Part shown: positions 29,658-55,923 of the stretch, one piece after another
Layout: each line of letters begins with the position of its first letter
Numbering within the stretch: the stretch's first letter is position 1
NCBI GenBank assembly: GCA_973895155.1
Contig: OZ316896.1
Location: forward strand, 7,895,539 to 7,959,538
DNA length: 64,000 nt
Direction: 5' to 3'
From: Marsupella aquatica
Taxonomy: Eukaryota; Plantae; Marchantiophyta
Made by a program: the position numbers and the translations under genes
Notes under the pieces: model-generated
Seen by the model: the letters and a program-made list of their open reading frames with translations, nothing else
Told to the model about the DNA's origin: nothing
The model's database searches: none

Positions 29658-29873
29658 ATGTCATCAAGTTCTGAGTTGTCATCCACAAACTCATCTTCCT
29701 CTGATGAAGAGGATCCACCTCCTCCACAACCTCCTCGTGGTCCACCCCGCCAACTTTGTGTGTGTACCCAATGAATGGGTCAGGTCTCCCAGAAATCTTA
29801 TGTATGAGCTGAACATATAGAGAGATATGGGCGCCATGTACAAGGTCATTCTGGAGCTTCTTCCTCCCATATG
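29658..29873 (+). pseudogene. CACTA-A exon 1: Ser/Pro-rich leader and CxCxxC..H Zn-ribbon (Transpos_assoc-like)
   Basis: Translates MSSSSELSS...LCVCTQ*MGQVSQKSYV*AEHIERYG...HM followed by a GTGAGT donor; homologous to 40496-40729; two TGA stops. Confidence 0.75.
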
Positions 29874-29991
29874 GTGAGTTTCCAAAATTGTATGGCTAGC
29901 TTCTTCATTTAGGGAAGCATCTTTTACGTTTTTAAGGTAGAGAGTACATTGTATTTTTTGTTAATTTATTTGGTTTTGTTGGAATATATAG

Positions 29992-30813
29992 GTATCCAAT
30001 AGGCTTAGACCTGCAGGACCAGCACCATATGTACCATCACAGGCAGTTGTAGATGCTATAGGCCAAGCCTTTCCACGTGTCTTCAATGGTCTAAGGGTAG
30101 GGGCTACCAATGTTGAAGGGGAAGTTGAGGAAGAGCCAGTAGTCCCAAGAGGGAGAAATCGGTCAAAGAGGAGGCCAAGAGGGGCCACCGATGCATATAA
30201 GTGTGTGGTTGAGGGTAGGTGGGGTAATTGTGAGTTCACAGGAAGATGTGTTCCTATTATCACGGATTGGGATCCTACAACTCTTGGGTTGCCAAACAAT
30301 CTGGCCCATGGTGAGCAGGTAGAAGTTTGGGGGAGACGTTGGGTTGTCAAACCCTCCACACTTGGAGACAGACATGGGTATGGAGTTTTTGCTTGTGAGG
30401 ACATCATAGTGGACTATGAGGTTGGTAGAGGTGGCCGTAGTGTAGAGGGACCTACTTTGTTTCCATATGGTGGACCCATCTACAAGAAGAGGCATTGGAA
30501 CATGATCCTCACACAACACCCTGAGTGGAAGACATATGCATTGGAGATGGATACTCATGAGGCCAACACTAGGTGCTATAGTGATCAGCGAGTGATAGAT
30601 GGGGACCCAATTCGAACTGGAAATATTGCTGGTTTTATTAATAGTACCGTGGGGTCTCAGCCTAAGCGTAGGCGGAACTGTGAGTGGGTATTCATTGAGG
30701 GTCCCCCACCGGCACCATATGGTCAAAGTTATCATCATGACCATTGTCTAGTTGTAGCTACCAGGACCATTTTAGCTGGTGATGAGTTGTTTACTCACTA
30801 TGAGTGGGATTAG
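29992..30813 (+). CDS. SET-domain exon of CACTA-A
   Basis: Open from the AG acceptor (29990-29991). SET motifs: VKPSTL..HGYGVFA, FPYGG, Y.L..D, IDG..GNIAGFINS, NCEW, VATRTILAGDELFTHYEW. Confidence 0.9.
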   Translation, partial: VSNRLRPAGPAPYVPSQAVVDAIGQAFPRVFNGLRVGATNVEGEVEEEPVVPRGRNRSKRRPRGATDAYKCVVEGRWGNCEFTGRCVPIITDWDPTTLGLPNNLAHGEQVEVWGRRWVVKPSTLGDRHGYGVFACEDIIVDYEVGRGGRSVEGPTLFPYGGPIYKKRHWNMILTQHPEWKTYALEMDTHEANTRCYSDQRVIDGDPIRTGNIAGFINSTVGSQPKRRRNCEWVFIEGPPPAPYGQSYHHDHCLVVATRTILAGDELFTHYEWD

Positions 30814-30848
30814 GGATAGGGTGACTAAGTTGGAATATATTTGTAGAG

Positions 30849-32700
30849 TGTGATACCTGTAGTTTGCCATAGAGAACCAAAAATCACATTTTAAAGTCTC
30901 CAAACTCGGTATTCGTTCCCTTTAAGAACAAGATGGGGTTGGTTTGATGTAATAAACTAAAAACAAAGCTTTAAGCTCTTGTGTCACACATAGTAATCAA
31001 TCTTGACTACTTTAATCAGGTACTTTGAAGATCGCTCCACAGCGGTGAGTAGTTTTTGATGATAACTCAACATCAGATAACCTTCAATTAAGCAAAAGAT
31101 TGCAATTAACAAAACACAAGGAAAAATCTCTCAGAGTATGCTTAAGGGAGTCTGGAATAGACCAAGGTTACTCCTTAGACATAAGTAATAATGGAATGAC
31201 TTTAAAGGGAATCCAAATCCACACGGCTTTTCAGATCTAAACTGCATACTAGAGTATCCTTTTAAAATGCCGGCAACATGTCTTGACCTTTCTTCCTAAG
31301 TGATACTTAGTCAAGATCTAAAAGGATAAATACTTCAGCATTTAGATGGTACTAAGCAACATGAAGGTGAAAACATCATTTCCAATGTAACTTAAACTCA
31401 ATGAGTTAACTCTAAGAACTTGTGAGATTACAATGTGTCACCAAAGCGGAATCTGACATTATAATTCACGAGATTCATAACTGAGGTTTTACTTCAAGTA
31501 TTTGGGTTCCAAAATACAAGAAGGAGGTAAGTCTCTCCAAATGTTAAACCTGATCTCGAACTCATAGATTCATGATCAACTAGTTTAACACAAGGGAGAG
31601 GCAAAACTGCAAAACTTAACCATCTCTCTACACTAGGGAAAGAGGTATAAATAGTGATGAACTACAGAATAAGAGGTCACAGGGTCGAAGAGACATGCCT
31701 CTTCATAACCCTCAAAAAGTCAAAACGACGATTCAATAAGTGGAAAGCCGGAAAAAATGGCTAAGTATGAACTCTTAAACTCTTAAAAACTTAAACTCTT
31801 AAAAACGTAAAAACTTAAACTCTTAAACTCTTAATTTCGGTATACTAAAAATTGAGTAGATTCAACTATTTTTAACTTTCTACTCCTGGTTCGGAAAACT
31901 CTGAAATTTTTCCAGTAGGGTTTCCTAGGTACAGACTACACACTAAAGAAGTATGACAGCTTCTAAAGCTCTAGAACACATTTCTAAAAATCAGATAAGA
32001 TGCACTACTCTAAAAACTAACTAAGAACACTTAGAGACTTCTTCAAGCTTGCTGTCGGATGTCCTCTGGTTCTAGTAACTCCACAAGGGTAACAATTCAG
32101 TTTTGGGTAACCTCTATCAGCTTAGCTTGGCGTGGGGATCCTCTGGAGTATGGTAGGCACCTCAGTTGTCTCTCAGGATACATCAAAGGCATTCTCTTCA
32201 TCAAATAACAGGAATCTATACGAAGAGCTTCTCTGTATATCCCTAGTACATCATAGTTGTTGCAGGTGGCAGCATATACTTGGGGATAGTGATGCAGAAA
32301 CTCATCACTATTCATCATCCTGGAATAGAAGGGTCGAAGTCTCCATTTGACATCTCTGAAATACCGGTTGAAGCTGGGCAGAGTTTGAGAGGTAAGGTGG
32401 AAGAGAAGTCAGTAATGAGCGCCTATGTCTTGCATTCCTTCCCTTTCAAGGTGAGCTCTTCATCCGTTGTGGAGTCCCGTTGAACTAGTTGTAAGATGTC
32501 ACGATCACAGAGTCGCCAAATCTTAAGGTGTAACTCGTAAAGAAGTGAACTAGTAAACTCGTAAACTGAGTTTACTCGTAACTTAGGAACTTAGTAACTT
32601 TGAATGCTGTTTTAGTTACAGTTAGCAATAATTGCAGTCTAAACACCGTAAAAAATTTAAAAATTTTCAGTTTCTTCATGCTTTTGGAATTACCCACTAC
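30849..32700. mobile_element. Unclassified LTR-retroelement-like fragment between the SET and Tnp2 exons of CACTA-A
   Basis: This spacer is ~2 kb in A versus ~120-150 bp in B and C. It has TGTGAT(30849)...ATCACA(32509), a TATAAATAG box, AACTCTTAA microrepeats and a PBS-like TGGCGACTC on the minus strand (32510-32518). No clean TSD; boundaries uncertain. Confidence 0.45.
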
Positions 32701-35700
32701 TTACAATACCATTATATATATATGGCGTTTGCCCGCATTTTGTATTTATTATTCATTGCCCACCATTTGTGCATTTTGAATATGTATTTTTTGTTGTGAG
32801 TCTAAAATAGATTGAACATGATTTTTTTTCATAGAATGTGCGCCCCTCTCAAAAGATGTTACCACGGAGGTTGAGGGCAACATATGAGCAAATGGGTATC
32901 CATCAGAAGGGCAAGGGTCACCGCCTGGTTCATCATCAAGTGAAGATGATACCCATAGCGTTGAGGATGTGCCACAACAAAGGGATGATGAGGCCATGGA
33001 GCCCCAAGACAGAGCCATGGATGAGTTCATGGTAGATTGGTTTGGAGCTGACCCGACACATGAAGTGGAAGACCTTGTACATGAAGAACATGCCACATCC
33101 AATGACCCACGGCCATGACATACACCAGAGGGACAACGCCAATGGGAGGAAGCAGAGAACCATGCCCAAACACCTATCTATGAGGGTGCACGACTGAGTA
33201 GACTTTCAACAATCTTGGGGTTGTTGAATCTTCAGGCCAAACATAAGGCCAACAATGCCTTACTATTAGATATGTTTGCATTTTGCCATGACTTCATGTT
33301 ACCCAGTGAGAACAATTTGCCAGGAACTCGGAAGGAGGCAAAGAGTGTGTTGTCATCCATTGGCACGGAATATCATATCATTCATGCATGTGTGAATGAT
33401 TGCATGTTATTTCATGGGACTACTGAAAACCTAACAGAGTGTACAACATGTCATGAGCTTCGGTATGACCCTAACATGTTGACAAAGAAGGTGCCAAGGA
33501 TATAAGGCTTGCTCCACTTGTGGCCCAAGCTTTGAGGACATGGCCAAATATTGTGCATGGCTTAGAAAAATTGTTTACATCGGGCATACAAAGTTTCTTC
33601 CAATGGGGCATGACATGAGGTCTGACCCACTTTTATTCTCCTCCTTTGACATGCCCCTTGGTGATGAGCGTGAAAAACCTGATGCAACCAGTTTTGCATA
33701 TTGGAAGTCGCTAGCAGATAGGGTGGCAGACCCACTTGATCCTCTCACCTTTGATGGGACCGGCTTAACACGTTGGAGTATACTAGCCACTTTGCCTTAT
33801 TGGTCTGAGATGAAGATCCGTCATTTGTTAGACCCCATGCACATAGAAGGAAATGTGGGGAAGGCATTGATTAAGGCTTTCTATGGGGATAAAGAGACTA
33901 ATTTCAGGGAGGCATGTGAGGATTTGGAAATGCATCCAGATGTATGGATAATTGTTGATCCTATTACAGGTATAGAGCATCGTCCTTCTGCTCCTTGGGT
34001 GCTCAGTGTTGGTCAAAGACGGGAGTTTTGGAATTGTATAGGAGAGATGCAATTTCCTACAGGATATGGAGCCAATCTTCAAAAGGCTTTTGGGATGGAG
34101 GACAATCACAAGTGGCCATGATATCTCGAGACACATGACTATCACCGGTTATTGCAACATATATTGCCAGTGGCAATCATAGGTCTTGGCAGTGAAGAAG
34201 TGCAAGATGCCATTTGGTCATTGGGTTGTTTGTTGAGATGGATATGCTCAAAGGAGATAGATGTAGAGGAGATCCCTAGGATGGAGATATTGGCAGCTGA
34301 GGTGGTGTGCAAGTTGGAGAAGGCCCTCCCTCCCTCCTTCTTTGATTGTCAAATTTACTTACTTGTGCATCTTGTGCGTGAGGTTGCTATTGCTGGTCCA
34401 GTGCATTGTCGATGGATGTATTGGTTGGAGCAATACATGGTTGTATTGAAGGCTTATGTACGTAATCGTGCACGGGTGGAGGGGAGCATAATTACAGGAT
34501 ATTTGGCAGTGGAGAGCATGTTTTATTGTAGTAACATCTTGGCCACAATTGATCCTACTTGCCCACGTACTTGGATGGAGGAGAGGGATGTGGAGAAGGA
34601 CCGTTTAACTGGAGCAAAAAAGACACGCATGTTGACATCAACAGAGTGGTCACAGTTGACAACATTCATGTTGAATAACAGCAATGTCATGGATGAATGG
34701 AGGGAGTTTTATGAGAATGCCAAAAGTATGAGTACAAGGGCAAGGATTTTTCCTAAATTGCATGACTATATGAAGCTGAAGTTGGTTGAGTTGGATAACA
34801 TGGTGGCACAAGGAGGAGATGTATTGATCAGACTTTCCGGGTATCACGGATGATGTGCGGAGCATTGTTCATGGCCCTTTGAGAGAAGTAACATCTCGGA
34901 CGGCAATGTGGACACAAGGGAGGCATTTCAGGTCCCACTAGTATCTAACCTTGTTGCCATTACAATTATTGTGTTCATTTATCTATATTGACCTTGGGGG
35001 TGTTAATCCCCATTTCTTTTGAGCTTCTTTTCATTGGGGTCTATACCTTTGATGCTTTGTTTCTCGCTTCCCTTTTGAACATTAAATTATGATTTTTGTC
35101 TTTTTCTTTCCCTCTTACTTTTGGTTTTGTTAATTTTAGGATTTCTTCCCTTGATGAGAAGAGAGGCTGTACCTTTGATTGTGGAGTTCAAGGCCAGTTC
35201 TCTCAAGACTCCTGAAGTAGTTGCCATGACAGGAATATTGTTCGAGATGTGGTGCCACACTATGGAAAGATAGAGGAGATCTTGGTGGTATCATATGACA
35301 CCCATTCAAAGTTTGAGGAGTATGTCTTGAAGTGCAAGTGGTTCAAAGTAAATCTTGCTGGTCAGAATTGAACTGTACTTCAAGATGAGAGTGGGTTCAC
35401 TACTACATATTGGCCCCTTTTGCGAAGCTTTTTTTTGACGCCGGGATGGTCTTGCGATGTCATCGACTTCAGATATTTTGTGATCAAACACGCATCACAA
35501 TAAACCATGCTCAAAGGTTCGCAACATAGTGTTGCGAAGCTAAATACCTCGCAATTTGTTTGAGATCGGATTGAATTTGCAACTCTTTCAGATACTATTA
35601 GTCTCACAAAGTATTTGTGGATCCGCGACCATCGCGACTGCATTTGGATCTCTTTTGTTTCATAATTTAGCGATAATAATGTACTCAAATATATCTTGTG

Positions 35701-36152
35701 AACCTATTAGCTTCGCACAATATTGTGAAGTATAAATAGTTGCAAGTTAGCGAAGCCAGTTGATTCGCAAAGTTGAGAACCCATTGGCATCACAATTACC
35801 GATGGTGTGTTATTCACAAAGTGTTCAGAAGTTGCTTCTTGACAAGCTTGAAAATGTTTTGCAAAGAGAGTTGTTTGAAAAGTTTGTAGAATGGAAATGT
35901 TTGAGAGAGTTTCTTTACAAGATGGAGAATGCATGTGTTTAGGTTACAGCTAGGGTTTTCAAAAAGGTGGCATGCATGAGGATAGCTTTGGAAACGGCTA
36001 GGGTTGCATATATAACAATGAGATGAAATTTCAAAGTCCAATTAAGTGTTTGTAAAACAAAAGAAGAAAATTAATATGTTAATATAAATAAAACCATGAT
36101 AGTTAGTTTAGGGTCAAATTCTGGGCCCACAACAAGTTTTACTACTAGTGCA

Positions 36153-39100
36153 TCAAACCTGGTCCTCATCCTCTCCTCCATTTGACACAATAATAACGTT
36201 AGGTTTTTCCGAGATAATGGAACGGGACCGTGGCACATACGGTATAACAACTGACCACTCTGGGTCTGGTGGGTACGGAATATAGAAACACTGCTCAAGG
36301 TGACTTGGGAATGTAAATGGTTCAGATGTTTGCCAATGAGATGGTTGAAAGCTAGTTGCTGATGTCTTCAGTCGAGTAAACCCACACTCATCAAGAAGTA
36401 CCGTGCGATTATCCAACCAGGTGAATTTTGAACCACTTACACTTGAAGACATACTCTTCAAATTTGGAATCGGCATCATAGGATATGATCAAGATCTCCT
36501 CAATCTTCCCATAGTGAGGCACCACAACTCTGATCACATTAGTGTCATGACGGCTACTTTGTGAATCTTGCATGAACTGCCCTTGAACTCCACAATCAAA
36601 AGTTCTTCCCCTCTTCTCATCAAGGTCAGAAATCCTGAAATGCCTCCCTTGTGTCCACATTGTTTTTCTGGTCTGAACAAGTCTTAAAGGACCATGAACA
36701 ATTGTTTGAACCTCAGGAGTCATATCTGGAAAATGTGATACATTCTCACCTTGGGCCACCATAGCATCCAACTGAAGTACTTTCTCCTTCATATACTCAA
36801 GGAACTTTGGAAAGATCCTTGGGCGACGACTCTCCCTCTTTGCATCCTCATAAAACTCTCTCCAATCTTCCATCACATTGCTGTTACTCAACATGAAAGT
36901 ACTAACCTGTGTCAACTCCACTGTGGTTAGTAAGCGTGTTTTTTTTGCACCTGTTAAACGGTCCTCCTCCACTTCCCTCTCTTCCATCCAAGTGTGTGGA
37001 CAACTAGGATCAATGGTAGCTAAGATGTTACTACAATAAACATACTCTCAGCTGCCAAGTATCCAGTTGCCATGCTCCCCTCCACTCGTGCACGGTTCAG
37101 TACATAAGCCTTTAACACGGCCATATACCTTTCCAGCCAATACATCCACCTACAATGCACCGGACCGGCAATGGCAACCTCCCTCACAAGATGAACGAGA
37201 AGATGCACCTGTCAATCAAAGAAGGAAGGAGGGAGGGCCTTCTCCAACTTGCATACCACCTCTGCTGCCAATACCTCCATCCGTGGTATCTCTTCTTCAT
37301 ATATTTCCTTTGAGCATATCCATCTCAACAAAGTGCCCAGTGACCAAAGGGCGTCTTGCACTTCTTCACTCCCCAAACCTATGATTGCCACAGGAAGTAT
37401 ATGTTGTAGTAAACGATGATAGTCATGTGTCTTGAGATACATTGGCCATTTATGACTGTCCTCCATCCCAAAAGCCTTACGTAGATTGGCACCATAGCCT
37501 GTAGGAAACCGCATCTGCCCTATGCGTTGTTGAAACTCTCTTCTTTCACCAACACTCAAAACCCATGGAGCTGAAGGACGATGTTCCATCCCTGTGGATT
37601 CATCAACTGTTATCCATACATCTGGATGTCGTTCTAGATCCTGGCATGCCTCCCTAAAATTAATGTTCTTTTCCCCATAAAAGTGCTTGATCAAAGCCTT
37701 CCCAACATTTCCCTCTATATGCATGGGGTCTAACAAGTGATGAATCTTCAACTCAGGCCAATAGGGCAAAGTGGCCAGTATACTCCACCTTGTCAATCCA
37801 CTACCATCAAATCCCATGGCATCTTCAGGGTCTGCCACCCTATCAGCTATGGATTTCCAATACGAAAATGTTGTGCGGTCAGGTATCTCACGCTCATCAC
37901 CATTGATCATGTCAAAGTCTAAAAACAAAAGGGGGTCAGACCTCATGTGATGCCCAAGTGAAAGAAACTTGGTATGACCAAGGTAGATTATCTTGTGCAG
38001 CCATTTTGAGTACTTGGCCATATCGTGAAGGCTTGGACCACAAGTGGAGCATGCCTTGTACCCTTGAGTTTGGAACCCAGAAACAAACCCAAACCCTGCT
38101 CACAAAATAACATTCTCAATTAGAGTCAAAGGAATTGAAAAGTTCATGTACATAGAATTAAAGAGGGACTTCCTTCCAAACAAACTTGATCTCCAATACA
38201 TGAAAAAAATACAAATCCATACCACTCACCTGGATAGTCATGCATGGTCCACATAATGATTCCCTTCAATTGGAAGACACGTGGTAACCCTCCTGTAGTT
38301 GTCCGACCATCATATGCCCATACACCCCCCCATAATTTATGGAGTTCCCCAACCAAGAGCGCCAAGTAGGTGTCCATGTTTTTTACCTTAGATGGACCTG
38401 GGATAATCAATGATAGCAATAAGAATCCCTTTTTCATGGACAACCATGGGGGAAGGTTGTAATTCATAACAACCACCGGCCAAACCAAAGTAGGGCACCC
38501 TTTCCCTCCAAGGGAGTGTGGGCTCACCCCATCTGATGCCAACCCCAACCTCACATGACGAGGGTCACGTGCAAACTCTGGCCATTGTGACTCCACATGC
38601 TTGTGAGCAGGGGAATCAATTGACAACCGCATGACACCGGCCTCTGATCGATGTGTCTTATGCCATACCATCAATTCTGCCAAGTCAGAACATCGGTACA
38701 TGTGCAACAATCGAGGAATAATAGGAAACCAACGAACAGCTTTTCTAGGCACCTTTGAGGTCAACATGTTGGTTTCATATCGAGGCTCTTGACAAATTGG
38801 ACACTCAGTTGCGCTGGCATTGGTCTCATGATAGAGAATGCAGTCATTCACACAAGCATGAATGATATGGTATTCCATGCCAATGGATGATAGAACCCTC
38901 TTTGCCTCCTTCCAAGTTCCTGGCAACACATTTTCACTGGGTAACAAGAGATCATGGCAAATTGCAAACAAATCCGATAGTAGCGCATTGCTTGCCTTGT
39001 GTTTTGCCTGAAGATTCATCAATGCCAAGATGGCAGATAGTCTATTCAAACGAGCACCCCCATAAATAGGTGTTCTAGCATATGCCTCAGCTTCTTCCCA

Positions 39101-39418
39101 TTGTTTTTGTCCTTCAGGTGTACGTTGAGGCCTTGGATCATGTGCAACATTTGGTGGAGGATCTCCTTCATTGGGTGGGACACCTCCTTCACCACCAATG
39201 TCTACACCAAACCAATCTGTCATGAAGTCATCCATGGCTGACTCTTGGTCTTGCATGACCTCATAATCTGTCCGAGGTGCCCCTTCATCTGGACTGTCAT
39301 TATCATTGTCACTTGATGAGGAATCTGCTGATGATGTTTCCCCGTCTTGTGGCAAGCCCATTTCTTGATATGTAGCTCTCAACCTCCTTGGCAACATATC
39401 TTGACTAGGCCGCACATT
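36153..39418 (-). pseudogene. CACTA-B Tnp2/TnpD transposase; exons 39418-38230 and 38095-36153
   Basis: RHVRLGLASDG, VWPVVVMNYNLPPW, WTMHDYPG, DPMHIEGNV, HDYHRLLQ, GPVHCRWMY. One TGA (37212) and two frameshifts (~37037, ~36410). Confidence 0.95.
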
Positions 39419-39568
39419 CTATAGACAATACAATAAAGCATTCACAATGAAATTAACTCCAAATATAGTAGTGCTCGAAACATATTATTAACAATATAAA
39501 AAGAACATGTCATTACAAAACATACGTTCACATACGATGAACATATAATACATGTCCCTAAAGTAATC

Positions 39569-40383
39569 CTAATCCCATTCATAATGTGTAAACAACTCCT
39601 CTCCAACCAGAATGGTCCTATTAGCTACAACTAGACAATGGTCATGATGATATCTCTGCCCATAAGGGGCTGGAGGGGGACCATCAACAAAAACCCATTC
39701 ACAGTTTTTCCTATGCTTAGGCCGGGTCCCCACAGTACTGTTGATGAAACCGGAAATATTCCCACTACGGATGGGATCACCATCAATTATACGCTGGTCA
39801 CAATACTTTCTGGTGCAACCATCAAAAGTATCCATGTCCAATGCATAGGTCTTCCACTCAGGGTGTTGAACAAGGATCATGTTCCAATGTCTCCTCTTGT
39901 AAATGGGTCCACCATACGGGAACAACGTTGGTCCATCCAAAGAGCGCCCTTTTCCACCCATATCATCCACAATAATGTCCTGACAAGAGAAAATCCCATA
40001 CTCATGCCTCTCCCCTAGGGTCGAACTCTTGACAACCCAACGTCTTCCCCAAACTTCTATCTCCTCACCATAGGTTATATCACATGGCAAACCAAGGCAC
40101 TCCGGATTCCAATCCTTTATGATAGGAACACACTTCCCTATGAAGGTACAAGGGCCCCATCTACCATCAACCCTACAAGTGTACTGATCCACTTCCCCTC
40201 TAGGCTGTCTTTTTGAATTTTTTTCCCTCTTGTAACAATACCGTCACCCTGAATTGTCCCAACACTACCTTGCCCTGCTGCCACTAAACGAAAAGCTTGT
40301 GAAAGTGCCGAGCCTATAGCATCTAGAACTCCTTGTGAGGGAACATAGGGTGTTGGTGTAGTGGGTGTAGGCCTACTGGATAC
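39569..40383 (-). CDS. SET-domain exon of CACTA-B (frameshift in an A-run near 40220, upstream of the domain)
   Basis: HEYGIFS, FPYGG, IDGDPIRSGNISGFINST, NCEW, VANRTILVGEELFTHYEWD; acceptor CTATAG ends at 40384. Confidence 0.88.
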
Positions 40384-40495
40384 CTATAGGAAGAAATGGA
40401 ACCAAGTGAGTGTGATGAACCTCCCAAATTTTATTTTATGCTACCTAGCAAGATTTACAAAATAAAATGGAAATCACAGTAAGTTTACAACTCAC

Positions 40496-40729
40496 CATAC
40501 GGGATGAAGAAGCTCCCGGTGTAAGACCTCGATGTTGGCCATATCGAGCAATGTGCTCCACACATACATATGACTTTTGGACAACCATCCCCACACATTT
40601 TTTACAACCACAAAGTTGGCGTGGTGGACCACTAGGTCGACGTACGGTTGGTTCAGGCTGAGGAGGAGGACGACTTTCTTCATCGGAAGAGGAATCTGAT
40701 GTGGTGGAAGTTGTAGAGGATGAAGACAT
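40496..40729 (-). CDS. CACTA-B exon 1: Zn-ribbon (Transpos_assoc-like)
   Basis: LCGCKKCVGMVVQKSYVCVEHIARYG; ends ATG followed by a phase-0 GTGAGT donor. Confidence 0.8.
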
Positions 40730-41164
40730 CTGACAAGTATAGCAATTGGAAGGCGATTAGTAAAAACTTCACCAAAACCATCATTGATAATCCCTACCTA
40801 AACATATTAAAAAGAATTGACAGAAAAATACCTTTATGAGACCCGGGCTTAGCAATGCCTTGACGGATCTTGTGGCTCAAATTTCATGAACCAAATCTGG
40901 AAGAAGGAGGGGAAAATCTGCCAATATACAATGAATTAAGCCATGCCTTATGGTGAACCAGAAAAAAAGGATGATAGATTGTAACCCTCCATGTTTACAG
41001 CAATGACTAGAAATGCATGAGAAAACGTTATACCTTTCAGATGCCCGGGCTCTCGCAAGGCATGATCATGCATTAGCCAAAACTTTAAAAAACATGGGGA
41101 AGTGCCCTACAACGCCACAGAGTTTTCCACTCCATGTTAATGAGATAGAGAAAGAAATATAAGT

Positions 41165-44618: not shown

Positions 44619-46548
44619 TTATTTTGTAGAGATACATGCATGAGAGTGACTTGTCATGCCGGAGCTCAGGGTAGGAAGAGGCAGCATAGGTTTAGAAGGG
44701 CGGACCTAGCATCAGATATTTCCCCCCTCTTCTCCATGTATAGGGTTCTTTGAAGCCCTATCATTTTGTTCATGCTTTTCCATTTTATAAAACAATAATT
44801 TTGCCTTCCACTTTGGGTCCCAAGGAAAACCCCTCGCAAATAATGTATTGAATCCTCTGTGATCATAATTTTGCAAACCCTTTAAGAACTCAATCCCATC
44901 GCACAATATAAACCCCAAGGCGTCGCACTTTTTGAGTCAATTCACTTCAGAACTTCACATCCAAATACGTCGGGTTTTTGTGATACTTCTAAGATCGCAC
45001 TTTCCTAATCGAAACCGTTCACAAACTTCTGAAATCATCGGTATCGCTCTTTATCATACAATCCCCATGAAAACAATTCAACCAGTATCTTTCGCAAATA
45101 TGATGCGATGGTAAATCCTTCTCAAATATCGACACCCGTGCGGGACGTGTGCATGTATGTTTGCGAACCTTATGCGACGTATAATGGATCGCACAAAGTA
45201 TTGAATCTTGCGAACCTCTCAGCTTCGCAGTTTGCCATGTGGTTGCGATGCCGTTGCGATGGTCCGCATGCGAAGTTATTAGGTTCGCAAAGTGCGAAGG
45301 TGGTGCGATGCGCGTATGTTCGCAATGGCCAGAATGATGAAAATCAGGGGCTTGTTAGTTGCGATGAGATTGTCTTCGCAAAACCGACCGATAGTGTTGT
45401 AGTGGTTCACACGGTTGAAGACATCTGCCACTAGTTTCCAGACATCTCATTGGCAAACATCAGAACCATTTGCTTTCCCAGCTCATGTAGAGCAGTGTTT
45501 CTACATTCCATACCCCCCCGACCAAGAGTGGTCACTGGTCATCACATATGTGCCACGGTCTCGATCCATTGTTTCAGAAAAACCAGATATAATTGTTGTA
45601 TCAAACATAGATGACCCTAAAGGTGAGGACCAAGTGTGAGGGATATGTATCACTAGTACATTTTCGGGCCTTTATTCGATAGGATTTACATCGGATCCCT
45701 TCAGGAAAATTGACGCAAAAATTTCTATCATCCGATGCAATTCCCAACGCACTTTGCGATGCGCAAACCATCGCATATCGACCATCGGACTTCCATCGGA
45801 CTTTCCGATATTTTTTACGACGGACGTTCCATTGTAACGTGTTACGGATATTTTATGTCCGTTGTAAAATGAATCGGATAACTAACACGCGACGGCACAC
45901 GACGATTTCCTATGTCCGATACTATTTAAATCGGTATGTCCGATATATTTGACATGGCAATTTGCGAAGTAATTTGTATCGGTATGTCCGATATATTTGA
46001 CATGGCAATTTGCGAAGGAATTTGTATCGGACATTGCGTTATTTATAATAACGGAAAGTGCGTTACTTTTTGTATCGGACTATCCGATATATTTAAGATG
46101 GGAACCTTGAAGGAGGGGTCCGATGCGTTGGGGATGGGAAAGTTTGAAGGCAACAGCATCGGACACTGCTACATTACCGATACGGATGGTAACGGACTTG
46201 CAACGGATTATCAAATGTTCTGGGGGTGGAATACAGGGTTTCATGGGTGGTTTTTTGGGGGTTTGGGTATTGGTTTAGGGTTGAAGGTGACATACACCAA
46301 TTAGGAACCAAAGATAATGCTATAAACACGAGGTCAAAATATCATATTCAAAAAGGAGATCACCCCAATATGTACAAAATGGATTAGGCCTATTGGGTAG
46401 ACCCATTCTGGTCGTGATGGCATGATAGAAGATGTAAAGAGAGCTTTGACTAGAGACTACACTGAGCTATATACAAGGTACCTCCGAGTGAGTGTCTAAT
46501 CAAAGTTGTCTAGCACTAGATACCCGACCACCTAAATGCAACTAACCT

Positions 46549-49236
46549 CTAAAAAGGTGTGTTGCGTCCCTTCTTCTTCTTTGGGCGAGAACGAAGGGTG
46601 GGTACATGTCTAGCATCATGAGAGCCCTCCTCCCTCTGGCTGCCCACAACCGTGGCAGCCACCTGCTCACCAGATGGCATGGGTTGGCCTGATGCAGGCC
46701 TAGACCCTGACCCACTAGATGCACCGCTAGGGTGGTCAGGCAAGGTAGATGTCCCACCAACCCCCGACACGGCAGAGTGAAAGGACGCCTTAGCTCCTCC
46801 CGCAGACCTGCTAGAGTGATGGGATGGTGCGCCAACAGATCCTGTGGGTGGCCCATGTCGTGCTGTACTCCCACCAGACTCACGAGATGGTGCGCGCCCT
46901 CTAGATCCACCATCCGGCACGTCGCCACTACCTCGTCGGGAAGGGCCACCTGCACCAGATACTCCTACGCGATCGCCTCGTCCCATGCCATCACCTCTAC
47001 TACCCCCTGAGTGCCTGGGCCCCGCACCCCGTGATGCTCCACAGCGATGGGAGCCCACACCATCAGCAGCATGTGACCCACCCCTCCCTGCTGATGGGGC
47101 AACGGCACCAAATGGGGCAACAACACCCTCGGGGGGGTCACTTCCACGGAAGTGACACATCACGTGCGACGAAGTATAGGCCCATTTAAATGGGTGTGGC
47201 GGAAGACTTCCAAAGTTAGGTGGAAGAACACATAGGGCATGTTTTATTGATTGGTCGACTTTAAAGAACACATAGGCCTATTTAATTGCAAAAAATACTT
47301 TCTATAAAGTTTTTAGGGGTTTTTTAATAAAAAATGACAAAATTTTAAGAAAGAAAGGGCTTTGCAAAAAAATATTTTTCACTTTAAAGTTAGGGGGGTC
47401 AAACCCTAAAACGTCGCACGCGATGTATGACCCTCCATATAGTGACCCCCCCGAGACAACACCTCGGACCTGAGGAGTAGGGGTGACTGTGGGCACCCTC
47501 CCCAACCCTGCCTCAGCATCCTGCTCAGAATCTGAGTCCAGCTCCTCCGACCCAGACCCCTCCTCATCCTGCGCAATAGGGTTTAATTGCAGTTAGAATG
47601 AATGGTCCCGACCATAACTCTAACAAATTCATGACAACCTTAAACATTATATCACCCTAGGGTGAACACTTACCTCTCCCAACTCATCCTCAAGGTGGCG
47701 CTTTAGAGCGCGGGGTCCATCCGTCTTTGCCAAATTCCTCTCCAACGGCGCAATAGGGCGACCATACTCCCGCTCCTGAAATTTAAAGATCCAAACCATA
47801 GAGGCCAGGTTAATATCAAATCTAGTATTAGCGTGCCCTACCCTAAACCAAGCCACCCTACATAGCCCTAATGTAACCTTAAACCATAGTTCACCCTAAC
47901 TTATACTCTACCCTAGTAAAAAATTAACGTTAAGTACGTTCATTCAAAAATTTAAATGTTTTGCCGAGGGGTCCGATTCAGAGTCCGATACAGCCTGCAT
48001 CGGACGTCTATCGGATGCGTAACAAGAAAAATGGCATGACACGGTGTCCGATGCTGCTTCCGATGCAAAACCTATCGGATGAGTATCGGAAAGAACAAGC
48101 CCGAGAGCAAAAATGAGTTTTGCAAAGGGTTTAAACAAAAGACATAAGGCACAAACAACTCATTCTTCGTGCGAGGAGTCAGGTGATCAGGGAGTCGAGG
48201 TGGGGAGGAGAGGGAGGGCACTTACAAACTCAGCCTTCAATCGATTGGAGCCGCCTTGCCCCATCCGGTGAGTGATGGTTGGCCTCCCCTGCACTCTCTC
48301 CAATGCTGCTATGATGTGCCTTGGTGGTTTGGGGAGTCTTGCTACCTGAGCTGCCCATTGTTGCAGGTTCTGTTGAAGGGGGAGGATATCAACATTCTCC
48401 CCAGCCTTTCGCTTCTCCTCTGCCAGCCTAATTTCGTTGTCCCAATGTCTTCTTTTCAGCCAGGCACGGACTGAGAGTTCCTCCTCAAGCCAAGCCGCCC
48501 ACTCATCCGGGGAAACATCGTCTGGACAACCCTCCTCCCTGATCACCTCTGCATCCACTGCCATATCTCCAAGGTACTTTCTGAATTTCTCTCGCTGATG
48601 ATTGCGCATGTCTGAGAGTGATGCTGAAATTCATTTGTTTAGGAACCTGTCATCAATGTAGGCCCCGTTCCTGAACCGTTCCTTCACCTGCTCTCTGATT
48701 CTCAATCTCTCTTCCTCCTTCTTCTTGCCCCAGTAATCCAGTGGCCCCAAATTGGCCCTCAGCACCTGCTTGAATTGGCTTCGGAATAGATGGTAGCTCT
48801 TAGGCAATGGACCACCACCCGAATTGAGAGCTAGCTCAGGCCTGAGAGCTCTCTCTGCCTCCTTTCGCCTCTGCTCCTCCAATCGCACCTTCTCAATTGC
48901 CCTAGCTTCTTTTCGAAGCTTTTTCTCTCGTTTTCTTGGAGACAGTGTCTCCTCTACATCCCCCTTGCCTCTCTTTGCCTCTTTCTTCCTCTTCTTTGCC
49001 TCCTTCTCACTTGCAATGCTTGCAGCAGCAGTCTTCTCTGCCTCACGCCGAGAGGCATCAATCAGCGTTTGGAGGAGTGGGACTACTCTCTTTGCGTCCT
49101 CCACACTCAGCCCTGCCTTGGCCACAAAAATGTCCCTCATAACTTCATTGTATGGCTGGGACGGTCCCCCTTGCTCTCCACCACCACCTGATCCCCCTTC
49201 GTCTCCCCCACCACCTGATCCCCCGCCCCCCTCCAT
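46549..49236 (-). pseudogene. CACTA-C second gene, TnpA/Transposase_24-like; exon 1 49236-48226, then two further exons
   Basis: QVKERFRNG, HRMGQGGSNRLKAEF + GTAAGT donor, C-terminus KKKKGRNTPF. TGA at 48631; MITE in the last exon. Confidence 0.7.
47128..47455 (+). mobile_element. MITE family 2, diverged subfamily
   Basis: TIR CTCGGGGGGGTCACT...AGTGACCCCCCCGAG; 8-bp TSD ACAACACC; shares ATCACGTGCGACGAAG and AAAACGTCGCA with the other copies. Confidence 0.92.
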
Positions 49237-49898
49237 CTCTCCTCCTCCTTCAAGCTCTCCTCCTTGATCCAGCTTCAAAAAATTTGAAAAACACCAAGTG
49301 CAAAACGGGGCCCGACGCGCGGGTCTTCGCACCTGCATCGGTTCTTTTTTCCGAAACAAAACCTGCTGCTTCCGATTCTTTCTATTTCGGACTTTGCGAA
49401 ACCAAAGGTATCGGACACGCAATCGGACTTTCCGAAACTATGTGCTTCGGACCCCTCGTCCTTTTCTTGTGGCCGTGTATTTACCAAGTGTGGCCCGTTT
49501 CCTATTGCATCGGACCCCTCATGAATTTATATCGGATACCTCTTGGCTTTCCCAAAGGGGGTCCAATATAATGTTTTGAATTTGGGTTGGGTATAATGGG
49601 ATTGGAGGGTTTAGAGTATAATTTAGGATATTTAGGTTTTGTATGGGGTAAGGGCACATGGTTGGAGTTATTATTTGCTTTCATATTTGAATCCGCGTTT
49701 TGTAGGGCTCTACATATGTGAACGGGATAGTGAACGTGTCATGCATGTAGAGGGACCTCTTGCAAGTTTCTTTGTTGCGGAGAACAAATTTTGGGGTTTG
49801 TACCGGACTATGTAATTTTTTTGATAAGCTATGGTCTTGCATGCTTAATATATTGGGCTCTAATTAATGATGCAATTGTGTATAGAGTCTTGGTGTTT

Positions 49899-50608
49899 TA
49901 GGGGTGGTTGTGGTGATGGGAACTCAATACTATGATATGTAATATAGGATCAAGAAAATACTACAAGAAGTTTTTGTATGAACCATTTTCGGGTGAAAGC
50001 CTTTTGTTTCATTTCTTTATAGGGGATTATGGGTGTACGTAGAGGTTTTATTAGTATAACATTATACCTTTTGATAGGATAATATTAAACCCCTTCATTA
50101 GGCTAATCTTTGTGTTTGGATTTGATGTGTAGTACCTTGCTTTTGGAGGGGTGGTTAACTTTTTTTGAGGGGGTAGGGAGGTTTCGATTTTGGACAATGC
50201 ACTATGCATGAAACCGTGCATCCAGGAGGTATGATGTCCTCTTGCAAGTTCCTTGCAAGTTTAGGGATGGTTGTGGTGATGGGAACTCAATACTATGATA
50301 TATGATAGACAAAATACTACAAGAAGTTTTTGTACGAACCATTTCTTGGTGAAAGCTATTTGGATCATTTCTTTGGAGGGGTTTATGGGCTTAGGGTTAT
50401 GGGGTTTTACTAGGATAAGGTTACACCTTTTCTTAGGATAAGGTTCAACCTCCATATATTAGCTAGGCTAATGGTTGTGTTGGATTTGATGCACAGTACC
50501 TTGCGTTTGGAGGGGTGGTTCAATGTTTGTGAGGGGGTAGATAGGTTTTGTTTTGGACAATGCACTATGCATAGTGTGAGACCGCGCATCTAGGAGGTAT
50601 GATGTCCC
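49899..50608. repeat. ~360-bp diverged tandem duplication in the CACTA-C intergenic spacer
   Basis: GGTTGTGGTGATGGGAACTCAATACTATGATAT ... GGAGGTATGATGTCC occurs twice (from ~49900 and ~50262). Confidence 0.8.
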
Positions 50609-50925
50609 CGCTTCACGAGCCGCATCATTTACACTTAATTTGTATGTTGGAATTTTTTTATATGTGGTGTGTTCTTCCTACACTCTTTCGCACTTACAGA
50701 TTATGTATGCTCATTAGCAAAATGCTCACCCATATATGCAGAGATTTTGGATGTCCCACACCTTGTGTGTAGAAAATACGACACAGTAAGCTGGCAAAGC
50801 GCGGGTATCATTGAGGTACAACAGGACTTTTGTATCTCATGCATTAATTATTCTATTTTGATACTCCAACACTTGTCTTCTTTTATGCAGCTTACATGAA
50901 TTCAGAGTGTACTTCATGCATGCAG

Positions 50926-51160
50926 ATGTCTACTTCTGATAGTTCCACGTCAGATTCAGACTCAGACACAAGCTCGTCTGAGGGGGAGGTTCCTCCACCC
51001 CCTCCTCCAGATCGTCCTCGTGCTCCACTAGGACCCATACCTTGCTGGTGTGTGAGATGTAAGGGACTTGTGGTTCGACATGCGTGGGAGACTGTCTTGT
51101 GAGCACATCGAGAACTATGGCCGCCACGAGGGTGATATGCCAGGGTATTTGCCTAGCCAG
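50926..51160 (+). pseudogene. CACTA-C exon 1: Zn-ribbon (Transpos_assoc-like), frameshifted near 51095
   Basis: MSTSDSS..PCWCVRCKG...(fs)CEHIENYGRH..SQ followed by a phase-0 GTATAT donor. Confidence 0.72.
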
Positions 51161-51298
51161 GTATATATATGTTTATGTCCCCTATTCATTCCATATATGC
51201 ATTCCAATTTAGGGTATTGCTTAATTATCTTGCATTTACATCCTGGCACTACTTAATTTATTGATTTGTGTAAAACCATTGTACGTGTGTTGAAATAG

Positions 51299-52560
51299 GT
51301 GCCTCGTAGGCCCCCACCTCCTTTGGTTCCTGAAGCTGTGTGGTTGGAAGGGTTTCTAGCAAGGGCCAGGGAGTTGCTTGCAGTTCCTCCTGCCCAGATG
51401 CCTCTTAGCCCACCTGCTCCTATCCCCACTCCCGTGCCCACACATGAGCATGTAGAGGGGGAACCGGTCTCTCGGCCCGAGGTTGTGACTACTAGAGTCC
51501 TACGTACACGACCACGATCTGGTAGACGTAGACGGCAGTATGGACCACTGGACCAGGTAGACAGACGAGAGGAGGTGTTAGGTACTAGTGATCGACCAGC
51601 CGGTAACGTAGATTATATTTGCGTTGAGGGCAGGTTTGGACTATCCTATCTCACTGGTAGGGCTGCCGAAGTTTTGAAGGACTTTTCTCCAAGTCTCTTC
51701 AAATTTCCAGATTTTATTCCTACAGATGAACCAGTTCAGATATGGGGTCGCCCTTGGATAGTGAAGGCATCCTCTATTGGTCATGATATAGGATATGGTC
51801 TTTTTGCTTTGGAGGATATTGTGGTCCCTCCAAAGCCATGGAGACGTGGTTATGATGGAGAGCACCTCTTTCCTTACATTGGGGCTGTATATAACTCCAA
51901 GAGTTGGAATATTTTGTTGCGTCAACACCCAAGTTGGGGGGTGTATGCATTGAGGATGGACTCAGACCCGGATGAGGTCTTCACTAGGCCGTGGCATTGC
52001 CGGATGATTGATGGTGACCCTATTCGGAACGGTAATTTAGCAGGGTACATCAATAGTACCACAGGTAGAGATAGAGGTTTGGAGGCTAATGTAGAGTGGA
52101 TTCAAATGTTTGGTCCATCTAGACATCCATATTTTGTGAAACATATGGACGACCATATCATGACAGTAGTTGTTAGGACCATTAGAGCCTCGGGGGTTTT
52201 ACTTCCACAAAAATGACATATCACGTGCGACGAAGGATAGGGTCATTTTATTGGTTGTAAGGGAAGACTTAAGAATTTTTGTAGAAGAACAATAGGGTCT
52301 TTTAAATTCAATTTTGAGACTTATAAGAACATTAGGGCCTTTTTAATCCAATTTTTGGAATATTCCAAGAATATTCCAACTTTATAGGGGTTAATTTTTT
52401 TTTTTTAAATCTTACATTTTAGGGGGTCCAAGGCCTAAAAACGTCGCAGGTGATGGGGAGGTCCCCATGTAGTGAGACCCCCGAGATTAGAGCTGGTGAG
52501 GAGTTATTGTGTGAGTATGAGTGGGATGCACCAAAATTGTCCTTGCGTTGTCGTCCATGA
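51299..52560 (+). pseudogene. SET-domain exon of CACTA-C, interrupted by a MITE
   Basis: IGYGLFALEDI, FPYIG, IDGDPIRNGNLAGYINST, NVEW. Removing the MITE and one TSD restores VRTIRAGEELLCEYEWDAPKLSLRCRP*. Confidence 0.9.
52189..52485 (+). mobile_element. MITE family 2, copy 3
   Basis: Same TIR; 8-bp TSD ATTAGAGC. Confidence 0.95.
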
Positions 52561-52681
52561 TAGTTTCTTGGACTTACATACATGTATATATATGTCAATT
52601 TATTTTACATGTTTACATGAGAATGATGTTGTTCAGCAGTGCATGTGTTGATGAGATTAATTAATTGATGTTGTATGATAG

Positions 52682-55600
52682 AATCAATATGTAACGCCTG
52701 ATATTGGGGTAATATCACGAGCTATGCGACAACACCTTGTTGAGGCCATGGTGGCCAACCGTGGGCATGAACCACAAAGGCAAGAGGATGGGGTACGACA
52801 TGATGGTGATGATCCTATCCAAGACCATCTTGATGAGGAGAGGGCCATGGATGAGCTCATGGACCAATTCTATGATGATCACGATGACATTGGTTTGGAG
52901 GACATTGGTTCAACCCATGAAAGGACTAGTCATCCACATCCTTCTAGGGGGTCCCAAGACAAGCAATGGGAGGAGGCGCAACGTCATGCCCGTACTCGCA
53001 TATTCGAGGGGAGTAGGTTATCTCGGCTCTCATCAATAATGTTGTTGCTCAACTTGCAGCAAAGACATGGGGCAAGCAATCTACTTTTGGATGATGTTTT
53101 CCGTACCTTGCATGATCGTATTTTGCCAGTAGGCAATGCATTGCCAGCCTCTTGGAAAGAGGCTAAACAGGTGTTGAGGTCCATTGGCCTGAAGTATGAG
53201 GTGATACATGCATGTGTGGATGATTGCATTCTTTTTAGGGGTGAGCATGAAAATGCCACTACATGTCCTAAATGTCAGAGGCCACGGTACCGTGATGACA
53301 TGTTGACGGGGAAGGTACCGCAAAAGGTTATGAGGTACTTTCCTCTTATCCCTCGATTGCGACATCAATTCCGATGTGCAGAGTTGGCTGAGATGATGGT
53401 ATGGCACTCACAAAATCGTTCTGATATGGCTGTACCCTCTAGTGCCATGCGGATGATGGTTGACTCTCCTGCCAATCGATTTGTAGAGGATAGATGGGGA
53501 GAGTTCAAAATTGACCCACGACATGTTCGACTAGGCTTGGCAGCAGACGGTATCAGCCCTTTTGCTTTGACAGGAAAAGCCAAACCATATTCGGTGTGGC
53601 CAGTAGTGTTGACAAACTACAACATCCCTCCTTGGATGGCCATGAAGAAAGGTCACCTACTACTCTCCATGATTATTCCGGGTCCTAAGCAAGTTAAAAA
53701 GATTGATGTGTACTTGCAGCCATTGATTGATGAGTTGATACAACTGTGGAGAGGAGTGGATTGTTATGATGGACGTCACAACACAGGAGGTTTATCCTGC
53801 GTATTTACTCTAAAGGCCATCCTTATGTGGACCATGCATGATTTACCAGGTATGGTAAACCCTTATTTCCTCTAGTACCTAAACCTTGTATTTAATTGCA
53901 ATTATGCAGATTTTTGCCTTGATGAACCTTATTTTATGAATGTGTTTTCTATGCATTGGGCAGGGTTTGGATATGTTTCTGGATTGCAAACATCAGGCTA
54001 TCGAGCTTGCTCTACATGTGGACCCGATTTGGAGGGGGTGGCCAGGCCCAAGTCAAGTACTCTGCAAAAAATTGTTTACATTGGTCATACTAAATATCTT
54101 CCACCAGACCATGGAGGAGTGATCCATTCCTTTATGATACTGATGAGGGCCAACCTGATATTCGTCCTCAACCTCAGCGGAAGGATCCAGCATATTGGAG
54201 AGAGGTATGGGGGAGAGTTCAGGATCCGAGTGATCCATTACCATTATTCAGATGTGGCATGACCCGTTTGTCTGCATTGTCACAATTGCCATATTGGTCA
54301 GATATGCCCATTAATCACTTGTTAGACCCTATGCACATTGAGGGGAATGTGGGGAAATCATTGATTCGCCATCTATATGGGGAGAAAAATAACAATTGGA
54401 GAGAAAGTTGTGAGGAGATGGGGATGCATGGTCTTTTGGGTTTTTGGCCATCTTTGGACCCCCCTGGTGCTCCCCCTAGCATCCATCCTCCTTGGGTTTT
54501 GACAAGGGTAGAGCGCATTGAGTTTCGCAGACGTATTGGGTTGATGAGGTTTCCCACAGGTTATGGTACCAATCTTCGGAAGGCATTTGGGGGGGAGGAT
54601 TCTCCAAAATGGCCATCTTTCTTGAAGACACATGATTATCATCGGTTGCTTGAACATGTTCTTCCAGTTGCTATTATTGGATTGGGTAGTGAGGAACTTC
54701 GTGATGCCCTTTGGTCATTGGGTAAGCTCTTAAGATGGGTATGTCAAAAGGAGGTACAGGAGTCCGATGACATTGCTGCTATGGAGATATTTGGAGTAGA
54801 GGTTGTCTGCAAGTTGGAGAAGGCACTCCCTCCCTCATTCTTTGATGGTCAGGTTCATTTCCTCATACATTTAGTGCGCGAGGTTGCAATTGCAGGCCCA
54901 GTACATTGTCGATGGATGTATTGGGTAGAGCGTTATATGGGGGTGATGAAGTCATATGTCTTTAATCGCGCTAGGGTGGAAGGTAGCATTGCGGAGCGTC
55001 ATCTTGGAGCAGAGAGTATGTTTTACTGTACAAACATAGTTGCCACACTAGATCCTAGTGCTCCTAGGGGATGGATAGATGAGGCAGCACGAGAGGCTGA
55101 CTACGAGGATGATAGACTCACTGGGGCATCTGGAGAGCGTCTCATAGGCTCAGCAGAGCGTTTACAGCTCACAACATTTATGTTGTATAACTCACCCGAG
55201 GTTGTCGGGGAGTGGACAACATTTTATGAGGAGGAGAAGCAAAATAGTCGACGCCCACGGTTATTTCCCAAGTTTCACCCATACATGAAGGAGAAGTTGT
55301 TAGAAGTGGATGCCCTGGTGGGTACCGGGGAGAGTGTATTACACTACCCAAACGTGACAGATAAACTTTGTACCTTGGTTCATGGTCCACTACTTATAGT
55401 CACGACTCGGACTGCCATGTGGTCAAAGGGGAGACATTTTCGTGTGGAACGACTTGATGAGAAGAGGGCAGCTACACAGGATTGTGGGGTGATGGGTTGG
55501 TTCACCCAAGATTCCCAGAGTAGCATGTCAGACATGAATCCCATTCGCTCCACCGTGGCCCATTATGGGAAGATTGAGGAGATCCTAACAGTGAAGTACC

Positions 55601-55923
55601 ATGCACATACTACTTTGGAGGAAGTGGTATTCAAGTGCAAATGGTTCAAGATGAATCTTGTAGGCCACAATCGTACTTGTGAAGATGATGCATGCGGTTT
55701 TACTCGTTTGAAGACATCCGCAAATAGTGTCATCAGTTCCAACTGGAGGTCCTCAGATCCCTTTGCCTTCCCACATCACCTTGAGCAATGCTTTTACCTA
55801 CCCTATCCCAATGACCCCGAGTGGTCCATTGTCATGCCGTATATTCCCAGATCACGGTCCATAGTCCAAGAGAGACCCAACGTAGTTGTAGTGGAAGATA
55901 GAGACATACCCCCCACGAGTTAG
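52682..55923 (+). pseudogene. CACTA-C Tnp2/TnpD transposase; exons 52682-53849 and 53964-55923; one frameshift near 54115
   Basis: YEVIHACVDDCILF, RHVRLGLAADGISPF, YSVWPVVLTNYNIPPW, WTMHDLPG, DPMHIEGNV, RWMYWVERYM; 554-aa open 3' part. Confidence 0.96.

Follow-up and report, generated by a model that had tools for sequence, protein, structure and literature searches.

We identified a SET-domain exon within the transposase gene of three nested CACTA transposons, here called A, B and C, in a 64,000-nucleotide (nt) stretch of the liverwort Marsupella aquatica (contig OZ316896.1, positions 7,895,539 to 7,959,538, forward strand). The window means this whole stretch, and all positions are counted within it. 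Judging from sequence comparison, the SET exon inside the transposase gene of this bryophyte CACTA clade is real, old and selected. The original prediction had placed a SET exon ahead of the Tnp2 transposase exon in each of the three elements, and the coordinates, the Pfam matches of A and B and the identity between A and C confirm this. Its layout was incomplete, however, as the SET exon actually sits inside the transposase gene, between a first exon (exon 1) and the Tnp2 exon. Likewise, its extent of 29658-55923 holds for the SET coordinates but falls short of the whole elements, with A reaching from 15534 to 57603. Public sequencing data were compared through the contigs of four runs from two studies. 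The elements are listed below (TIR, terminal inverted repeat; TSD, target-site duplication).

15534-57603, + strand: CACTA element A, the outermost, which holds B, C and several other insertions (CACTA termini; TSD GTG on both sides)
35398-45404, - strand: CACTA element B, 10007 nt (TSD GTT; empty-site joint 35393-45404 in 4/4 runs)
45651-56672, + strand: CACTA element C, 11022 nt, of a divergent family with ATCGGA repeats (TSD TAT; TIR CACTAGTACATTTT)

B and C are nested inside A, in the 3' part of its transposase gene, where B interrupts the transposase and C is inserted directly beyond the last transposase codons. All three have 5'-CACTA...TAGTG-3' termini with short TIRs and are flanked by 3-bp TSDs, and the empty site of B is present in contigs of all four runs. 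They share one layout: a 5' TIR with repeats, an antisense open reading frame (ORF2), a repeat-rich spacer, exon 1, the SET exon, the Tnp2 exons, and 3' repeats with a TIR. A and B have the same TIR type and subterminal hexamer, TTGCGA; C alone differs, with another TIR and the hexamer ATCGGA, so that the differing TIRs and subterminal repeats claimed for the elements hold for C but not for A versus B. Homology between A and B is restricted to ORF2, exon 1, the SET exon and the Tnp2 exons (68-78% by blastn), with none in promoter or terminal DNA, in agreement with the earlier observation that the SET exon is conserved while its flanks have diverged. The insertion points of B and C lie about 250 nt apart (35398 and 45651) at the 3' end of A's transposase gene; possibly such elements prefer related elements, or this is chance in a region rich in transposable elements (TEs). 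The gene parts within each element are as follows (MITE, miniature inverted-repeat transposable element).

17542-18585, - strand: ORF2 of A, in divergent orientation, a helical accessory exon with one internal stop (68% DNA identity to ORF2 of B)
29658-29873, + strand: exon 1 of A, Ser-rich, with a CxCxxC..H motif, two in-frame stops and a phase-0 GT donor (sequence reading)
29992-30813, + strand: SET exon of A, intact, 273 codons plus stop, with a phase-0 AG acceptor (Pfam SET above cut-off; AlphaFold2 model and fold searches)
32835-35397, resuming at 45405-45650, + strand: Tnp2/DUF4218 transposase exons of A, with a frameshift and a ~680-nt deletion, broken by B (Pfam, alignment)
36153-39418, - strand: Tnp2 transposase exons of B (Transposase_21, DUF4218), with stops and frameshifts (Pfam)
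39569-40383, - strand: SET exon of B, 815 nt, with a frameshift near 40217 in the 5' end region (Pfam; one-base difference in other copies)
40496-40729, - strand: exon 1 of B, intact, 78 codons (weak PF13963 match)
42591-43637, + strand: ORF2 of B, antisense to the transposase, with TTGCGA clusters on either side (homology to ORF2 of A)
48187-49250, - strand: ORF2 of C, with one internal stop (sequence reading)
50926-51160, + strand: exon 1 of C, frameshifted in the window copy (4-nt difference at 51092 in 4/4 runs)
51299-52560, + strand: SET exon of C, split by a MITE (39% identity to A; MITE-free joint in 4/4 runs)
52189-52485, no strand assigned: hAT-like MITE, 297 nt, with an 8-bp target duplication, inside the SET exon of C (termini and duplication)
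52682-55923, + strand: Tnp2 transposase exons of C (Transposase_21, DUF4218, DUF4216) (Pfam)

The SET stop and the Tnp2 exon are 150 nt apart in B and 121 nt apart in C; in A, an insertion widens the gap to 2021 nt. The description of SET as lying just upstream of Tnp2 therefore fits B and C but not A. Between A's SET stop and its Tnp2 exon lies an insertion of ~1.9 kb (30850-32760) with solo-long-terminal-repeat-like ends, for which no target duplication was found. The transposase is of the TnpD type, with Transposase_21, DUF4218 and DUF4216 recognised by Pfam; first-Asp, CxxC, HxxxH and Glu motifs are present in C and first-Asp and CxxC motifs in B, and the second-Asp motif was read directly. 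All window copies are broken: A has two exon 1 stops, an insertion after the SET stop and a Tnp2 deletion, B a frameshift in SET and stops in Tnp2, and C an exon 1 frameshift and the MITE in SET. Among the matches listed, contigs of all four runs have one inserted base at the SET frameshift site of B, and lack both the MITE of C and its exon 1 lesion (4 nt at 51092). These three lesions are therefore copy-specific.

The identity of the exon is indicated by both sequence profiles and structure prediction. Among 22 ORFs of the window scanned with Pfam (SET curated cut-off 22.4 bits), the SET exon of A (E 5.8e-6, 27.1 bits) and the in-frame 224-aa SET of B (E 2.8e-5, 24.9 bits) scored above the cut-off. 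The truncated SET ORF of C gave no Pfam SET match at E<=0.1; its exon, which is 39% identical to that of A, resumes after the MITE and closes with ELLCEY followed by a stop codon, and P0043, to which it is closely related, is recognised by Pfam SET. For the SET core of A, an AlphaFold2 model built from 33 sequences reached a predicted local distance difference test score (pLDDT) of 71 and a predicted template modelling score (pTM) of 0.74. With this model, the best 40 of 186 Foldseek chains at E<=0.001 were all SET proteins (best E 2.9e-6), and the top rows of a VIA search were SET proteins as well, led by human SET8 (Z 10.8, rmsd 4.0, 144 residues aligned) with EZH2 (Z 10.0) and COMPASS within 1 Z unit. 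An Atlas search likewise gave SET clusters. As modelled, and as the Pfam matches of A and B indicate, the SET exon of this family has a SET fold, which the original prediction had supposed. A single-sequence search of PDB with SET returned 0 matches; the family profile did find SET enzymes, the best being LegAS4 (E 8.7e-6), aligned across all motifs and with Phe at the His position of the NHS motif. A viral origin of the SET exon was considered and rejected, since none of 120 pattern matches in viral contigs was a relative.

Residue conservation was counted over the aligned stretches of 130 cluster representatives. The glycines of the motif I GxG (G129 81/87, G131 84/90), the YxG motif (Y159 Tyr or Phe in 90/92, with 62 Tyr; G161 85/91), N217 (87/98), E265 (75/75) and the terminal ELxxxY tyrosine Y270 (68/68) are kept. 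From the SET8 and EZH2 literature, we take these positions to be S-adenosylmethionine (SAM)-binding and lysine-binding or catalytic sites. The NHS motif retains its Asn, and its His is replaced by Ser in 91/97. This replacement, together with Phe in place of Tyr at YxG in 28/92 and Pfam scores near the cut-off, would suit a domain that has lost catalysis and serves as a reader or decoy, binding histone tails or a SAM-enzyme partner and thereby blocking host silencing without writing. We regard this as quite improbable, as GxG, Asn, Glu and the terminal Tyr are near-invariant down to ~25-30% identity and LegAS4, which lacks the same His, is reported to methylate H3K14 (bioRxiv 10.64898/2026.05.29.728679; here and below, cited sources are represented by their accessible text). 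Given the kept catalytic positions and this His-less active enzyme, methyltransferase activity is plausible, and we consider the predicted SET protein to be probably an active methyltransferase.

The gene organisation suggests how such a protein could be made. Exon 1 comprises 72-78 codons with a CxCxxC..H zinc motif, and in B it weakly matches the Transposase-associated domain PF13963, the usual N-terminal part of plant TnpD, below the cut-off (E 0.012). In A and B, the exon 1 GT donor, the SET AG acceptor and the Tnp2 AG acceptor are all in phase 0, and the SET exon closes with a stop in A, B and C and in the metagenome loci described below. Since either acceptor would keep the frame of exon 1, and SET closes with a conserved stop, exon 1 could be joined to SET or to Tnp2. 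It is likely, from the splice-site phases and independent gene models, that exon 1 is spliced to either Tnp2, yielding TnpD, or SET, giving two products; Calypogeia and Sphagnum gene models, themselves predictions, contain an exon 1+SET protein (P0001, P0005 and others). We hold a separate spliced protein of this kind to be highly probable. No shared splice donor was found behind the SET stop in A, B, C or five peat-moss-like spacers and, as the stop is conserved, an alternative terminal exon is favoured. A cassette-exon model was rejected: 5/5 peat-moss-like spacers contain no donor-like motif after the SET stop, and those in A, B and C are scattered and unshared. No clear poly(A) signal was found after the SET stop. 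Longer fused SET forms were absent at E<=0.001 among 1615 candidates, which is weak evidence, and Riccia models of 625-773 aa that contain SET parts plus Tnp2 are, given the conserved SET stop, interpreted as fusions introduced by gene prediction.

The same layout recurs outside the window. Of the named relatives, the one nearest to A's SET exon comes from the liverwort Calypogeia fissa (74% identity), followed by Sphagnum (56-73%). A metagenome scan yielded 44 loci with SET. All 23 loci in which the SET end is complete and the sequence runs on for at least another 400 nt have the Tnp2 exon 143-188 nt further on (23/23), a count that speaks for about one lineage and not 23 because 43 of the 44 loci are copies of one family (91-95% identical to L030). 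Where the SET start is complete and 400 nt of sequence precede it, exon 1 is present (14/14 loci); ORF2 is found in eight of nine loci having 2.2 kb upstream, and a CACTA 5' TIR can be seen in five long loci, whose flanking triplets are of four kinds. The SET of locus L002 is 89% identical to a Sphagnum jensenii protein. A profile search of 1.84 billion representatives returned 130 clusters at E<=0.001; of 30 clusters looked up, 9 carried a species name, namely seven Riccia, one Calypogeia and one Ginkgo. Transposase_21 lies behind divergent SET sequence in 3 of 44 proteins scanned, all of them Riccia sorocarpa models with SET parts 30-43% identical to A's. The SET-Tnp2 linkage claimed for the window is thus present in other copies and taxa, including the peat-moss-like family and Riccia and Sphagnum gene models.

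Two further observations concern the breadth of the SET family. A distant branch, comprising P0157 (Ginkgo Gb_21150), P0105 (Calypogeia), P0102 and P0113, reaches a gymnosperm, and a search with this subfamily returned seven proteins. Additionally, the SET cores of Calypogeia and Sphagnum (P0001, P0005) are 76% identical, versus 35-43% between Calypogeia and Riccia, and A and the peat-moss-like family (L015) differ at a synonymous divergence (dS) of 0.75-0.85. This may mean either that an old paralogue has evolved slowly or that the sequence has passed horizontally between bog plants.

Selection on the SET core was estimated as the nonsynonymous to synonymous rate ratio (dN/dS) by the Nei-Gojobori method with 95% bootstrap intervals. 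Between A and B it is 0.18 (0.11-0.27, 211 codons), far from 1, with 0.15 for Tnp2; it is 0.22-0.29 for A against nine loci, 0.19-0.29 for A or B against these loci, and ~0.3 for C against A or B, at nearly saturated dS. The values for eight near-identical copies of one family are 0.24-1.33, and every interval includes 1. From low ratios between families and neutral-range ratios among copies, we infer selection in transposing lineages and decay after insertion. Moreover, over 7 lineages the SET distances track those of Tnp2 (Mantel rho 0.68, exact p 0.003), and both trees group A, B and L015 as well as two Riccia lineages. On these comparisons, we are highly confident that the SET exon is a selected, element-encoded exon. 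The original prediction of an old, selected cargo thereby stands against passive capture of a piece of a host gene (Pack-CACTA) or a domesticated gene of the host near transposons, which is largely refuted and very improbable. Distant family members in Ginkgo (Gb_21150) and Calypogeia (P0105) might fit such an origin, but the SET exon lies inside TIR- and TSD-bounded elements, and its intron position is shared by three families separated by dS 1-2; a full domain, autonomous-type elements, deep spread, the dN/dS of 0.18, neutral decay among copies, the varied flanking triplets of the five loci, the linkage across loci and the co-variation with Tnp2 all differ from what Pack-CACTA cargo would show.

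Candidates for targeting are found in the repeats and in ORF2. Family-specific CG-containing hexamers cluster at both element ends and on both sides of ORF2, with 4-16 per cluster versus shuffle means of 0.1-0.3, or 0.2-0.3 for the ends alone, for motifs picked by eye from the same regions, in keeping with the clustered subterminal repeats of CACTA elements. The observed/expected CpG ratio is 1.2-1.7 in the three terminal regions measured versus 0.26-0.49 in coding exons. ORF2 has no Pfam Transposase_24 or Transposase_23 match and no profile match to SET; its model is tri-helical, with noise-level Myb, BEN and homeodomain matches (VIA Z 5-6.3). Searches for a TnpA identity of ORF2 gave no Pfam, Atlas (best 0.79) or Foldseek match, and the best VIA Z of 6.3 is within noise. 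The ORF2 protein is a candidate TnpA-like binder; any link between it and SET is speculation. Telomere-like AAACCC(T) arrays (19100-19435, 23420-23900, 28943-29163 and 41164-42100) fill the spacer between ORF2 and exon 1 in A and B, and could serve as telo-box-like promoter motifs.

We propose that one transposase gene would yield the transposase when exon 1 is joined to Tnp2 and a predicted lysine methyltransferase of ~350 aa when exon 1 is joined to SET. The SET protein would mark histones on the element's own chromatin, keeping the element expressed, and could be targeted by the common zinc-motif exon 1 or by the antisense ORF2 protein together with the family-specific CG-containing repeats. 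Based on the layout, the phases, the modelled fold, purifying selection and spread, we give this histone anti-silencing role of the SET isoform, taken overall, slightly less than an even chance. A broader version is more tentative: a bryophyte-wide, ancient CACTA clade may have swapped the TnpA-type splice product for its own histone methyltransferase, such that one promoter and one zinc-finger exon would serve either the transposase or a chromatin writer guided to family-specific CG-containing repeats, where it would rewrite the histone marks of the element as a sequence-specific, self-encoded anti-silencing enzyme in land plants.

Several observations count against this proposal. All three window copies are defective, and an internal Met, at codon 8 of the Tnp2 exon, could let TnpD start without exon 1. 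Besides the dominance of one family among the metagenome loci, eight loci with truncated SET beside unrelated DNA were excluded from the linkage counts (L024, L025, L032, L033, L039, L040, L041 and L043). The congruence of SET and Tnp2 trees, proposed as a check in the original prediction, is seen in the co-varying distances and shared groups but not in the order of A, B and L015, which differs between the trees. With partial Riccia sequences, none of the branches of the SET tree was starred; the tree rebuilt with proxies of 88-91% identity for two Riccia rows is weak, with one of four inner branches starred. SET also evolves faster than Tnp2 at depth (A-C identity 44% versus 56%). Furthermore, the fold matches spread over H4K20, H3K4, H3K27, H3K14 and H3K9 enzymes at 15-27% identity, so the substrate cannot be read from the fold, and the mark written could equally be repressive, or the target a non-histone protein.

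A SET isoform active on a non-histone target, such as TnpD, the ORF2 protein or a host silencing factor, would tune transposition. The catalytic positions are equally conserved under this reading, the SET exon product lacks both the pre-SET and the post-SET zinc region and is not clearly affiliated with any histone class, and exon 1, common to the SET isoform and TnpD, could bring both together. We consider it unlikely, however, as the best structural matches are histone enzymes and published TE-borne SETs, in the accessible accounts, are interpreted as histone methyltransferases. An enzyme that writes a repressive mark on the element, holding back the element's own activity or replacing permanent silencing with a state that can be reversed, such as H3K27me3, appears distinctly less probable. 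EZH2 is among the best fold and profile matches, and H3K27me3 is reported on many Marchantia TEs (10.1101/2022.10.24.513474), but the EZH2 match is tied with SET8 and COMPASS, and the known TE chromatin factors described in PMC12730594 and bioRxiv 10.1101/2025.02.11.637652 are anti-silencing.

Our preferred reading, a self-encoded anti-silencing writer, has precedents in part. In En/Spm elements, TnpA and TnpD arise by alternative splicing (maize Spm, Arabidopsis Spm3; PMC13547354; bioRxiv 10.64898/2026.08.24.746577), no SET is mentioned in the accessible text of these two accounts, and TnpA-like proteins appear restricted to flowering plants (bioRxiv 10.64898/2026.08.24.746577). The elements described here resemble En/Spm in their CACTA termini, their clustered subterminal motifs and one gene that would give a transposase and an accessory regulator; the predicted accessory isoform is instead a SET enzyme and not a helix-turn-helix DNA-binding TnpA, with the candidate DNA binder ORF2 on the opposite strand. 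Red-algal Plavaka elements of the EnSpm/CACTA superfamily carry PAG2, an adenine methylase+SET gene (bioRxiv 10.1101/2025.02.11.637652). Both systems have SET (PF00856) in elements filed under EnSpm/CACTA, an ancient association and a proposed chromatin role. However, PAG2 is a separate gene of giant elements with SET fused to an N6-adenine methylase, whereas here the SET exon lies inside a Tnp2-type transposase gene (Transposase_21), and no N6-adenine methylase domain was found in 44 SET-family proteins scanned; PAG2 was distinguished by its published description.

SET genes are also reported in HarbingerS and MuDR families of Phytophthora (PMC12730594, citing Kojima and Jurka 2014, Repbase Reports), and SET capture in Helitrons (bioRxiv 10.1101/2025.02.11.637652). 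These are likewise DNA transposons encoding a SET lysine methyltransferase, as predicted here, but they belong to other superfamilies and hosts. By analogy, VANC of VANDAL elements is a TE-encoded factor tied to short element motifs that acts on epigenetic state (PMC12730594; bioRxiv 10.1101/2025.02.11.637652); in contrast to the bryophyte SET exon, it belongs to the MuDR superfamily, causes DNA hypomethylation and is not a SET enzyme. The predicted protein shares the SET fold and motifs I-IV with SET8, MLL1, EZH2, ATXR5 and LegAS4, but at 15-27% identity, with no assignable subfamily and no post-SET zinc knuckle. The accessible parts of 10.1101/2022.10.24.513474 and PMC11982613 supply chromatin context only. 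The original prediction knew of no described SET-bearing CACTA clade; SET-carrying transposons are published, the Plavaka elements filed under EnSpm/CACTA among them, and the novelty is smaller than it supposed. For land-plant Tnp2 elements we found no account in a literature search that did not extend to Repbase Reports, journals behind subscription or the supplements of preprints, and such families may be present in Repbase. A transposon-borne SET therefore has precedent, and the exon-sharing layout in land-plant Tnp2 elements appears undescribed within the searchable literature.

The remainder of the window is rich in other insertions. Another CACTA 3' end of the A/B type, with TTGCGA-type repeats, ends at 3146 (2276-3146); the 5' end of this element was not found. 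The spacer of A contains large insertions (19436-23419 and 23900-28940) with long ORFs that lack a clear Pfam match; the latter insertion has a second copy, 91-95% identical, at 60781-64000, and all three are probably retroelement-related. A MITE family of 300-330 nt with CTCGGGGG termini and hAT-like 8-bp target duplications has four copies (15655-15951, 27025-27323, 47128-47455 and 52189-52485), every one inside another transposon. Broken Copia-like and Gypsy-like retrotransposon pieces occupy 9403-15467 and 57446-60500; the latter has Pfam matches to integrase and zinc knuckle, and its part at 57446-57603 overlaps the 3' end of A on the opposite strand. Host-like exons with transmembrane segments at 5648-8397 appear to resemble a CASP-like protein.

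In summary, our analysis places a predicted lysine methyltransferase inside the transposase gene of bryophyte CACTA elements. The accessible accounts in PMC12730594 and bioRxiv 10.1101/2025.02.11.637652 contain no demonstration of an active transposon-borne SET enzyme, and the present family, with its ~350-aa protein, many natural variants and tractable liverwort and moss hosts, offers a compact test case for whether transposons write their own histone marks. The finding also serves as an annotation warning, as many gene models of Sphagnum, Calypogeia and Riccia named 'SET domain-containing protein' probably represent transposon exons, which would inflate host methyltransferase counts. Finally, it bears on how CACTA elements may be regulated outside flowering plants, where TnpA-like proteins are reported absent.

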